A stretch of DNA of 19,427 nucleotides from Candidatus Hadarchaeum sp. (GCF_049969415.1 NZ_JBMFOX010000024.1:1-19427); one strand, 5' to 3'. Positions 10,366 to 11,345 are shown, numbered from the stretch's first letter. A program made the numbers and translations. The notes: generated from the sequence alone by a model not told the origin.

Positions 10366-10866
10366 ATGGATGAGTTCACCTTCAGGGCCGCCTACGCGAT
10401 ATTCGGGGCAGTGCTGCTAGCCTTGCTGTTCTTCATCTTCAGCCGCAAGCTGGACCGAAAGCTCTTCGCGGTCCCCGTGGTGGTTGGCTTCCTCTTCTCG
10501 GCAATTACCGCGCAGTTCATCGGCGGCGGCGTGGCCTCGCCTCTGTTCGGTGGCGTCCTGACCGGCTATCTGGTAAAAAACACGACGAAGTGGTCAACCC
10601 TCTTCAGAGCCGGCGCCGCCAACGCCGCCCTGACTCTGGCCGCTCTGTTTCTGCCGGCCCACCTCACCCTCTACCAGACCAGCCTCGCGGACCTGCTGGC
10701 AATGATCTCAACGGCCGGATACACGATAACTGCGGAGCAGTTCCTCTACCTGCTCATCAGCAACTACCTCCTTTATTTCGTAACCATTTTCACCTTCCTC
10801 ACCGGGACAGGCGCCATCCTAGGCAACTACCTGCGCAGAGTGCTGATGCCCAAACAGCACCTTTAG
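10366..10866 (+). CDS. Hypothetical integral membrane protein
   Basis: 166-aa ORF with about five hydrophobic segments, ATG start, divergent from iscS. Confidence 0.7.
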   Translation: MDEFTFRAAYAIFGAVLLALLFFIFSRKLDRKLFAVPVVVGFLFSAITAQFIGGGVASPLFGGVLTGYLVKNTTKWSTLFRAGAANAALTLAALFLPAHLTLYQTSLADLLAMISTAGYTITAEQFLYLLISNYLLYFVTIFTFLTGTGAILGNYLRRVLMPKQHL

Positions 10867-10895
10867 AAGTTCAGAAACGCAAAAACCGCAACCCA

Positions 10896-10902
10896 TTTAT
10901 CT
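10896..10902 (+). promoter_or_regulatory. Putative TATA box of the tRNA gene
   Basis: TTTATCT about 25 nt upstream of G10925, where the structured tRNA leader begins. Confidence 0.5.
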
Positions 10903-10952
10903 CCAAAGGAGCACACGGTTTCACGGTAGCGGGAGAGCTACCCTCCGTAGCG

Positions 10953-10968
10953 AGCCTCGGGCCTACAA
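10953..10968 (+). other. tRNA intron 1, position 4/5 (acceptor stem), 16 nt
   Basis: Strict BHB: outer CC(10945-46)/GG(10970-71), central GUAG(10947-50)/CUAC(10963-66), bulges CG|A and AA|G, inner GCC/GGC. Confidence 0.8.
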
Positions 10969-10996
10969 GGGTAGGGCAGCATGGAGTGCCCGCCGG

Positions 10997-11018
10997 ACGT
11001 GGGAGAACCACGGGCGAA
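10997..11018 (+). other. tRNA intron 2, position 30/31, 22 nt
   Basis: Central CGCC(10991-94)/GGCG(11013-16), bulges GG|A and AA|G, inner CGUGG/CCACG. No outer helix (relaxed BHB). Confidence 0.9.
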
Positions 11019-11025
11019 GCTCATA

Positions 11026-11059
11026 AGGCGTCAAGCCGTGGGTTTGGCGCTCCTGCGAG
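11026..11059 (+). other. tRNA intron 3, canonical position 37/38, 34 nt
   Basis: Central CUCA(11020-23)/UGCG(11054-57) with one U.C mismatch, bulges UA|A and AG|A, and a 10-bp intron hairpin 11028-37/11041-50. Confidence 0.88.
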
Positions 11060-11067
11060 ACCCGGAG

Positions 11068-11096
11068 TCATCCGTGCCAAGACACGGGTGCCGGAA
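11068..11096 (+). other. tRNA intron 4, position 45/46 (variable loop), 29 nt
   Basis: Central CCGG(11062-65)/CCGG(11091-94), bulges AG|U and AA|G, inner 8-bp CAUCCGUG/CACGGGUG. Confidence 0.9.
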
Positions 11097-11110
11097 GTCG
11101 GTGGTTCAAG

Positions 11111-11139
11111 AGAGAACGGCGGTTGCCGGTCTCTGAAGT
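11111..11139 (+). other. tRNA intron 5, position 59/60 (T loop), 29 nt
   Basis: Strict BHB: the T-stem is the outer helix, central UUCA(11105-08)/UGAA(11134-37), bulges AG|A and GU|U, inner GAGA/UCUC. Confidence 0.9.
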
Positions 11140-11345
11140 TCCACCCCCCGCTACCACCTGCTGATCTTCAAACCGCGACCGATTTTAGAAAATGAGGACC
11201 CTAAGCTGTCCAAACGGTGGGTCAAGTTTTATCAGGCTCAATCGGCCGAGGAAAAATTGGCCGGGCGGCATGCATCAATGCTGCATTGAAAAACGAACCA
11301 AAAATCTCTTCTTCTTTGACAACAGACAATTAACGGGATGATGCC

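Follow-up and report, generated by a model that had tools for sequence, protein, structure and literature searches.

Positions 10949 to 11156 of the window (the whole stretch of DNA analysed, 19,427 nt from Candidatus Hadarchaeum sp.) very probably hold the sole and essential initiator tRNA-Met gene of this uncultured archaeon, in which the BHB motif of an intron at position 4/5 draws on the transcribed 5′ leader. The interrupted gene, which lies on the plus strand and spans 208 nt, was found to give a cloverleaf after in-silico splicing. Comparison with archaeal initiator tRNA predicted five BHB introns, at 4/5, 30/31, 37/38, 45/46, and 59/60, and their in-silico excision yielded a 78-nt tRNA-Met(CAU) with a clean cloverleaf in ARAGORN. 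The ARAGORN fold of the spliced product contains a 7-bp acceptor stem, an A1:U72 pair, an encoded CCA, and three G:C pairs that close the foot of the anticodon stem. Archaeal initiator tRNA-Met is marked by a CAU anticodon, an A1:U72 pair, and three G:C pairs closing the anticodon stem. The unspliced segment 10949-11156 is itself highly structured, folding better than 200 of 200 shuffles (z = -3.26). A mechanical ORF at 10590-11195 overlaps the tRNA segment and counts as no evidence of a gene. The promoter box, the exons, and the four downstream introns were assigned as follows.

10895..10901, plus strand: TATA-like promoter box ATTTATC, predicted only, from the sequence and its spacing in relatives
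10949..10952, plus strand: exon 1, AGCG, tRNA positions 1-4, from the spliced product with its 7-bp acceptor stem
10969..10996, plus strand: exon 2, positions 5-30, from the spliced fold
10997..11018, plus strand: intron 2, 22 nt, at 30/31, with central helix H 4/4, inner helix h′ 5, and outer helix h 0; present in 20 of 48 loci
11019..11025, plus strand: exon 3, positions 31-37, carrying the anticodon CAU, from the spliced fold
11026..11059, plus strand: intron 3, 34 nt, at the canonical position 37/38, H 3/4
11060..11067, plus strand: exon 4, positions 38-45, from the spliced fold
11068..11096, plus strand: intron 4, 29 nt, at 45/46, H 4/4, h′ 8
11097..11110, plus strand: exon 5, positions 46-59, from the spliced fold
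11111..11139, plus strand: intron 5, 29 nt, at 59/60 in the T loop, H 4/4, h 5, h′ 4
11140..11156, plus strand: exon 6, positions 60-76, with the encoded CCA, from the spliced fold
11146-11155, plus strand: E5, the 3′ acceptor strand plus ACC, within exon 6, from transcript folding

ARAGORN called no tRNA in the unspliced window, and Rfam at the gathering threshold gave no match to the initiator gene there; a search of the whole genome with RF00005 returned 48 matches, none of them on the contig of this gene. The gene was missed by both tools because five BHB introns split it. No second initiator tRNA gene was found in the genome, which is 95% complete: the remaining motif matches were coding sequence, and the tRNA-Met on contig C6 is of the elongator type, with G1:C72. 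With no other initiator gene in this genome, 10949-11156 must therefore work. In the elongator tRNA-Met (C6, 45728-45840, minus strand), ARAGORN places an intron of 21 nt in the anticodon loop and draws an unusual anticodon arm, and this gene probably carries non-canonical introns too.

The first intron was examined by BHB scoring together with the spliced fold. The stretch 10945-10971 reads CC GUAG CGA GCC UCG GGC CUAC AAG GG and forms a complete hBHBh′ motif, in which a 4-bp helix lies between two bulges of 3 nt, one on each strand. Its parts are as follows.

10953..10968, plus strand: intron 1, 16 nt, at position 4/5, from BHB scoring and the spliced fold
10947..10950, plus strand: 5′ strand of the central helix H, GUAG, made of leader bases G-2 and U-1 with A1 and G2; 4/4 pairs, with covariation
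10963..10966, plus strand: 3′ strand of H, CUAC, the same letters as tRNA positions 71-74; 4/4 pairs
10945..10946, plus strand: outer helix h, leader bases -4 and -3 (CC) with G7 and G6 (10971, 10970), 2 bp, from scoring and alignments
10954..10962, plus strand: hairpin of the inner helix h′, GCC UCG GGC, 3 bp (10954-56 with 10960-62), from scoring and covariation
10951..10953, plus strand: 5′ bulge CGA, with a predicted cut after 10952, from BHB scoring
10967..10969, plus strand: 3′ bulge AAG, with a predicted cut after 10968, from BHB scoring

At BHB motifs, cleavage occurs after the second bulge base. Cuts after the second base of each bulge join AGCG (10949-52) to GGG (10969-71), and the joined 5′ strand AGCG+GGG is fully complementary to CCCCGCU (11146-52). 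The earlier note had proposed an intron at 4/5 whose central helix is built from leader bases -2 and -1 with A1 and G2 and whose outer helix uses the leader CC, and both parts of this proposal were borne out, with 4/4 pairs in the one helix and 2 bp in the other. Both flanking helices reach the minimum of at least 2 bp, with 2 bp in h and 3 bp in h′. It had also been cautioned that the run of G residues might make cuts at 5/6 or 6/7 indistinguishable from 4/5. This caution proved mistaken for the exon at 10949-52: the junction 10952/10969 is the only one that restores the stem, and no shifted register gives the same product, so that the caveat does not apply here; it is valid only for an upstream duplicate, AGCGGG, at 10928-33.

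The motif by itself is not distinctive. The local 37-nt fold is at chance level (z = 0.12, with 104 of 200 shuffles as good), and strict hBHBh′ motifs are common in this G+C-rich genome, numbering 89,562, or about 2.6e-4 per given pair of cut sites. These figures would also suit a decayed or non-functional tRNA gene with a BHB-like fold produced by chance, a reading that is extremely improbable: this is the only initiator gene in the genome, its product is a perfect cloverleaf, and the motif has been kept with compensatory changes in 12 sequences and across three phyla. The weight of the case for a functional 4/5 intron is carried by the exact junction, the perfect cloverleaf left when all five introns are removed, and conservation with covariation. 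A survey for further acceptor-stem introns, in which each of 68,484 strict motifs in the genome was removed singly before ARAGORN was run, gave no convincing new case among 26 junction-spanning matches, by a procedure that is blind to multi-intron or relaxed cases. Folding of the full predicted transcript placed the GUAG:CUAC helix in the minimum free energy (MFE) structure at 37, 60, and 80 °C. Forcing the canonical intron 1 bulges in that transcript costs 3.8 kcal/mol; in the whole-precursor MFE, 10938-44 pairs alternatively with 10968-74, collapsing the 3′ bulge.

Among 66 species genomes of the phylum that could be searched, the intron 1 pattern matched in 11. Two of these matches lay inside ORFs and were not counted, leaving nine true holders of the 4/5 intron (9 of 66 genomes), which fall in five genera and two families. 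The homologous introns measure 15-18 nt in the eight relatives. When introns were counted over 48 initiator loci in the phylum, they occurred at 4/5 in 9 loci (all with H 4/4), at 10/11 in 19 (H 3/4), at 30/31 in 20, at 37/38 in 27 with a further 4 scored as 38/39, at 45/46 in 16, and at 59/60 in 24. The number of introns per initiator gene ranges from 0 to 6, with six in one gene, five in 7 genes including that of the window, and four in 15. The gene with six (L014, in G009) is predicted to be interrupted at 4/5, 15/16, 30/31, 37/38, 45/46, and 58/59. A scan of metagenomes in which the search pattern specified AGCG and the D arm alone, leaving -2 and -1 unconstrained, returned four contigs with the 4/5 intron; one of them is similar to G028, and three further distinct sequences were added in this way.

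In an alignment of 12 such sequences, 97.2% of the cells are paired. Neither this pairing nor the covariation score was equalled in any of 500 shuffles, and sliding the partners lowered pairing to 27-46%. The earlier note had named covariation of leader and intron bases as a check on its proposal, and such covariation was observed. In the 12 Hadarchaeota-type sequences, the -1:intron pair is U:A in 11 and C:G in one, the latter in a metagenome contig in which leader base -1 is C and the intron reads CUGC. The -2:intron pair is G:C in 8 and G:U in 4, and the leader C:G pairs of the outer helix are present in 12 of 12. Two of the three pairs of h′ are changed on both sides (G:C, A:U, and G:U in one; C:G, G:C, and A:U in the other), and the motif holds three pairs with two-sided changes in total.

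The design extends beyond the phylum. Two scans of contigs from one genome per species were made, and 142 CAU-tRNA-like matches were examined among those listed. One scan fixed GUAG and CUAY, so its loci are uninformative on -2 and -1; the second left these positions free, as did the metagenome scan. Among the matches listed, the 4/5 design occurs under record titles naming Bathyarchaeia/Bathyarchaeota, Geothermarchaeota, Thermoproteota, and Thermoplasmatota/Thermoplasmatales, with intron lengths of 14-42 nt across phyla. At least about 42 initiator genes titled Bathyarchaeia or Thermoplasmatota share the leader-built intron at 4/5. The earlier note had named no intron at this position as known, and this is overturned by these genes together with the nine holders in the phylum. 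At least 55 distinct genes among the 142 matches are split after base 4 with H 4/4, 54 of these 55 have h of at least 2 bp, and one (L152) looks like a chance match; a contiguous 5′ strand was seen in 63 of the 142, and H falls below 4 in two.

Over the 55 genes among the matches listed, the -2:intron pair is G:C in 19, G:U in 20, and A:U in 16, and the -1:intron pair is U:A in 51, U:G in 3, and C:G in 1, the same-pair counts at these two positions being inflated because loci of the first scan were selected with fixed GUAG and CUAY. In the same genes, A1:U and G2:C are each found in all 55, the -3:G6 pair is C:G in 51 and U:G in 3 with one non-pair, and the -4:G7 pair is C:G in 41 and U:G in 14; all such counts overstate the number of events because related genes are not independent.

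Upstream of the motif, the leader contains two further elements.

10925..10933, plus strand: E1, GGUAGCGGG, which duplicates the acceptor 5′ strand within the leader; located where the transcript is predicted to begin, and complementary to 11147-11155
10937..10942, plus strand: E2, GCUACC, a copy of the tRNA 3′ end, able to form a 6-bp hairpin with E1

E1 repeats leader sequence together with the first six tRNA bases. In relatives with a leader copy, 24-27 nt separate the end of the TATA-like box from the first AGCG, and in genes that lack one the box ends 21-30 nt from A1. Since these distances match, E1 is assigned to the position of the ancestral 5′ end, where the transcript is predicted to start. 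Of the 47 loci in the phylum whose initiator gene has a mapped 5′ end, 29 retain the copy, and comparable copies are found in other phyla. Complementarity of at least 9/10 between E1 and the 3′ strand was found in 9/9 genes interrupted at 4/5, in 19/19 of those interrupted at 10/11, and in 1/19 of the others in the phylum. Across phyla, among the matches listed, 39 of 50 genes carrying the 4/5 intron have a leader (-50 to -5) in which a run of at least 8 pairs to their own 3′ strand can form, as against 0 of 55 genes lacking it.

The 19 loci that carry an intron at 10/11 and none at 4/5 (L005, L007-L011, L019, L022, L023, and others) have introns of 26-31 nt there. The central helix of this intron uses acceptor bases G4-G7 and, in the register by which the D stem is restored, reaches only 3/4; an unbroken helix of 9 bp between exon and intron is also possible. 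E2 is less conserved than E1 in these relatives. Three forms of the initiator gene, namely 4/5 with the leader copy, 10/11 with the leader copy, and neither, occur within single genera (g1, g2, g10, and g12), a patchiness that suggests replacement or transfer of whole gene forms and not simple descent. The joint occurrence of leader copy, leader pairs, and 4/5 intron, patchy within genera, points to repeated transfer or loss of the whole gene form.

The presence of an upstream copy raises the question of which one is the real 5′ exon. AGCG, AGCGG, or AGCGGG at 10928-33 might be joined to 10969-71 by removal of a 37-nt intron, in which case the proximal GUAGCG would belong to the intron, the leader would shrink to about 3 nt, and the G-run ambiguity would apply. 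The resulting tRNA would be identical, the spacing between the TATA-like box and the upstream copy matches that between the box and the mature 5′ end in genes without a copy, and an intron at 10932-10968 also has H 4/4 with 3-nt bulges (GUAGCG at 10926-31 with the same CUAC). We nevertheless regard the upstream exon as distinctly unlikely. Its junction has an outer helix of 0 bp and an inner helix of 1 bp, and the other two registers reach H 1/4 and 0/4; at 37 °C its conformation is less stable by 5.3 kcal/mol (-9.2 vs -14.5); and the covarying h′ hairpin adjoins the proximal bulge. Moreover, in the 19 relatives with the upstream copy and the 10/11 intron, no BHB joining the copy to the tRNA was seen by eye, so that there the copy must be leader. 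The choice of the proximal 5′ exon, as predicted by scoring and folding, is based on the flanking helices and the energy.

Two other candidates involving the upstream region were rejected. Removal of the leader by EndA through a bulge-helix-loop, with GGAG (10932-35) pairing to CUCC (10943-46) and a cut before A1, was discarded when inspection of the alignment by eye showed that the helix is lost in G009 and G018. A permuted or split gene was also dismissed, the initiator gene being collinear with only GCUACC (10937-42) upstream resembling a 3′ end.

With the proximal exon as the preferred reading, a role for E1 in splicing can be considered. In the MFE of the full transcript, E1 pairs over 9 bp with the real 3′ strand (11147-55) at 37, 60, and 80 °C. 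When the first five bases of E1 (10925-29) were left out of the folded transcript, the true 5′ end paired with the 3′ strand and not with the intron. At 70 °C, the central helix was present in the MFE with E1 and absent without it in G000, G001, G002, and G007, the window's clade; in the other five of the nine holders, the presence or absence of E1 had no effect on the central helix at that temperature. The outcome of this folding comparison is mixed. Two relatives (G041 and G044) show a matched change, GAUAGC... with ...GCUAUC, which is the only clean compensatory event between E1 and the 3′ strand. Covariation of E1 with positions 73-75 is weak (the pair e-2:74 is G:C in 37 and A:U in 7, with 20 non-pairs), and the E1/E2 hairpin, with six pairs and 100% of its cells paired, shows one-sided changes only (G:U).

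We tentatively propose, with somewhat less than even confidence, that E1 and the 4/5 intron form a conserved two-part module in which E1 acts as a surrogate acceptor strand during splicing. On this model, E1 would pair with the 3′ acceptor strand in the primary transcript, keeping that strand occupied and the tRNA body folded, and the true 5′ strand would thereby be free to form the splicing motif with the leader and the intron. After ligation, the true strand would displace the surrogate, and RNase P would discard E1. Alternatively, E1 may be the scar of an insertion or duplication that created this gene form, or may reflect a constraint of the initially transcribed sequence. If the surrogate-strand module is real, it would amount to a built-in RNA chaperone that explains how an essential tRNA tolerates an intron consuming its own acceptor strand, and it would explain the recurrence of this arrangement in three phyla.

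The genome encodes the enzymes that such a pathway would call for. A single EndA gene of 179 aa with both Pfam domains is located on contig C9 (25337-25873), and no second copy was found in the genome by tblastn or Pfam. Among solved structures, the best relatives of this EndA are the enzyme of M. kandleri and the homotetramer of M. jannaschii. An RtcB gene (594.6 bits) and a full-length archaeal RNase P RNA (196 bits) are also present. To our knowledge, the splicing endonucleases of broad specificity described so far are of the two-subunit or three-unit types. A lone single-unit EndA is thus found in a genome with many non-canonical tRNA introns; either it depends on motifs of the canonical kind, or a second subunit was overlooked. 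According to the accessible text of PMC5829648, and as is established, an EndA of the single-subunit type should need the canonical motif. Leader pairs -2 and -1 of the central helix would be indispensable if the EndA of this genome is of that type.

These considerations bear on the order of processing. Since the leader pairs covary and the canonical motif forms only with the leader attached, cutting is expected to need a leader-bearing precursor. Once the leader is gone, two of the four central pairs are left, no outer helix is left, and the 4-nt exon is barely held, which makes splicing before trimming the natural sequence. We infer, soundly in our view, that splicing would precede RNase P trimming. 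In the proposed pathway, the primary transcript, starting near 10925, would fold the leader, exon, and intron into the motif; EndA would cut both 3-nt bulges of intron 1; RtcB would join the leader and AGCG to GGG; and not until then would the 7-bp acceptor stem assemble and the leader of about 24 nt be taken off by RNase P.

No RNA run containing the window was among those listed. Contigs of a relative roughly 94-95% identical were examined in four runs, two of DNA and two labelled as metatranscriptomic that are flagged as probably DNA. These contigs contained no spliced joints, all showing the unspliced form. The two DNA runs cross the locus linearly. In the runs with a metatranscriptomic label (X1 and X14), a 218-nt unit is joined head to tail with all five introns kept. 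The unit corresponds to 10938 (position -11) to C75, that is, window positions 10938-11155, and the joint connects the equivalent of 11152 to that of 10938 with three letters between them and one misfitting base. One of the metatranscriptome-labelled runs holds the head-to-tail form only, at a depth of 24.6, and the DNA run from the same sample is linear. No BHB was found, in the window or in L002, that would explain the ends of the unit. The joint could represent a circular precursor, an artefact, or a tandem variant, and a head-to-tail joined precursor might belong to the surrogate-strand pathway.

The same joint would fit a scheme in which the intron is real and the order is not fixed by the leader, with trimming to about -11, circularisation, or the action of a presenting factor coming first. 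The occurrence of the unit in two metatranscriptome-labelled runs, set beside linear DNA runs, speaks for such a scheme. It was seen, however, in contigs only, in runs flagged as probably DNA, with a base that misfits and with ends that lack a BHB. A form beginning at -11 retains every leader base of the motif and therefore does not contradict leader dependence. We consider this scheme unlikely and favour an order in which the leader-bearing precursor is spliced first.

The initiator tRNA is essential and encoded by a single copy here, so the start of translation depends on a splice site that belongs to the leader-bearing precursor only. The gene is a naturally occurring substrate on which one could ask whether the splicing of archaeal pre-tRNA and trimming by RNase P are bound to a set order, with built-in controls in relatives that have the same tRNA and no intron, or an intron elsewhere. 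For annotation, the gene is invisible to ARAGORN and Rfam, and genomes of this kind would be scored as lacking an initiator tRNA. In evolutionary terms, the combination of leader copy, leader pairs, and 4/5 intron is found in genes titled Hadarchaeota-type, Bathyarchaeia, and Thermoplasmatota.

The closest precedent is the acceptor-stem intron at 3/4 in certain Thermoproteales, described as "an extreme case" (Sugahara et al. 2008, in Yoshihisa 2014, PMC4090602). Both are protein-spliced BHB introns in the 5′ acceptor strand that are removed by EndA and an RNA ligase, and in both the central helix must by geometry reach into the 5′ leader. With an intron this near the 5′ end, a 4-bp central helix must start upstream of the mature tRNA; geometry therefore obliges every BHB intron near the 5′ end, the published 3/4 case among them, to involve the leader, and the principle of a leader-built BHB is already known and not new. 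Unlike the Thermoproteales case, the present intron is located at 4/5, interrupts an initiator tRNA, permits no shift that gives the same product, and occurs in Hadarchaeota-type genomes and, by record titles, in Bathyarchaeia and Thermoplasmatota. It is further distinguished by the conserved leader copy of the acceptor strand, which the accessible text of PMC4090602 does not mention.

Genes with several introns are also known elsewhere. "Up to three" introns per tRNA gene are given for Thermoproteales in the available portions of PMC4033280 and PMC8450103. A 2026 preprint on Asgard archaea, as far as its accessible part goes, reports up to five in a single tRNA gene and refers to a few acceptor-stem cases in its supplement only (bioRxiv 10.64898/2026.10.13.758758). 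The gene described here resembles these in being missed by standard finders; by comparison, it has five introns, with six predicted in one relative, and a lone single-unit EndA. This phylum is unmentioned for tRNA introns in the literature found.

Split and permuted tRNAs, known from Nanoarchaeum equitans and elsewhere, build their BHB from leader and trailer, and the tRNA-iMet of Thermofilum pendens is permuted at 59/60, as given in the accessible text of Chan et al. 2011 (PMC3218864). They share with the present gene the use of a non-tRNA flank in the splicing motif and the maturation of ends after splicing; the T. pendens gene resembles it further in that an initiator tRNA is affected and the 59/60 junction is used. 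Unlike these tRNAs, the gene here is collinear and in one piece, its leader pairs with the intron and not with a trailer, and only 6 nt resembling a 3′ end lie upstream. In searching for introns close to gene ends, tRNAscan-SE 2.0 adds 60 nt of flank to its candidates (PMC8450103, accessible text), which implies that annotators know of BHB motifs that reach into the flank. This routine is a search device, and that text gives neither a 4/5 initiator design nor an account of processing order. No account of an intron at 4/5, of its reliance on the leader, or of an acceptor-strand copy in the leader came up in our literature search, and earlier priority is possible (Marck & Grosjean 2003, Sugahara 2008). 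The leader-built intron at 4/5 is widespread rather than unique, and it belongs to the already known class of BHB tRNA introns.
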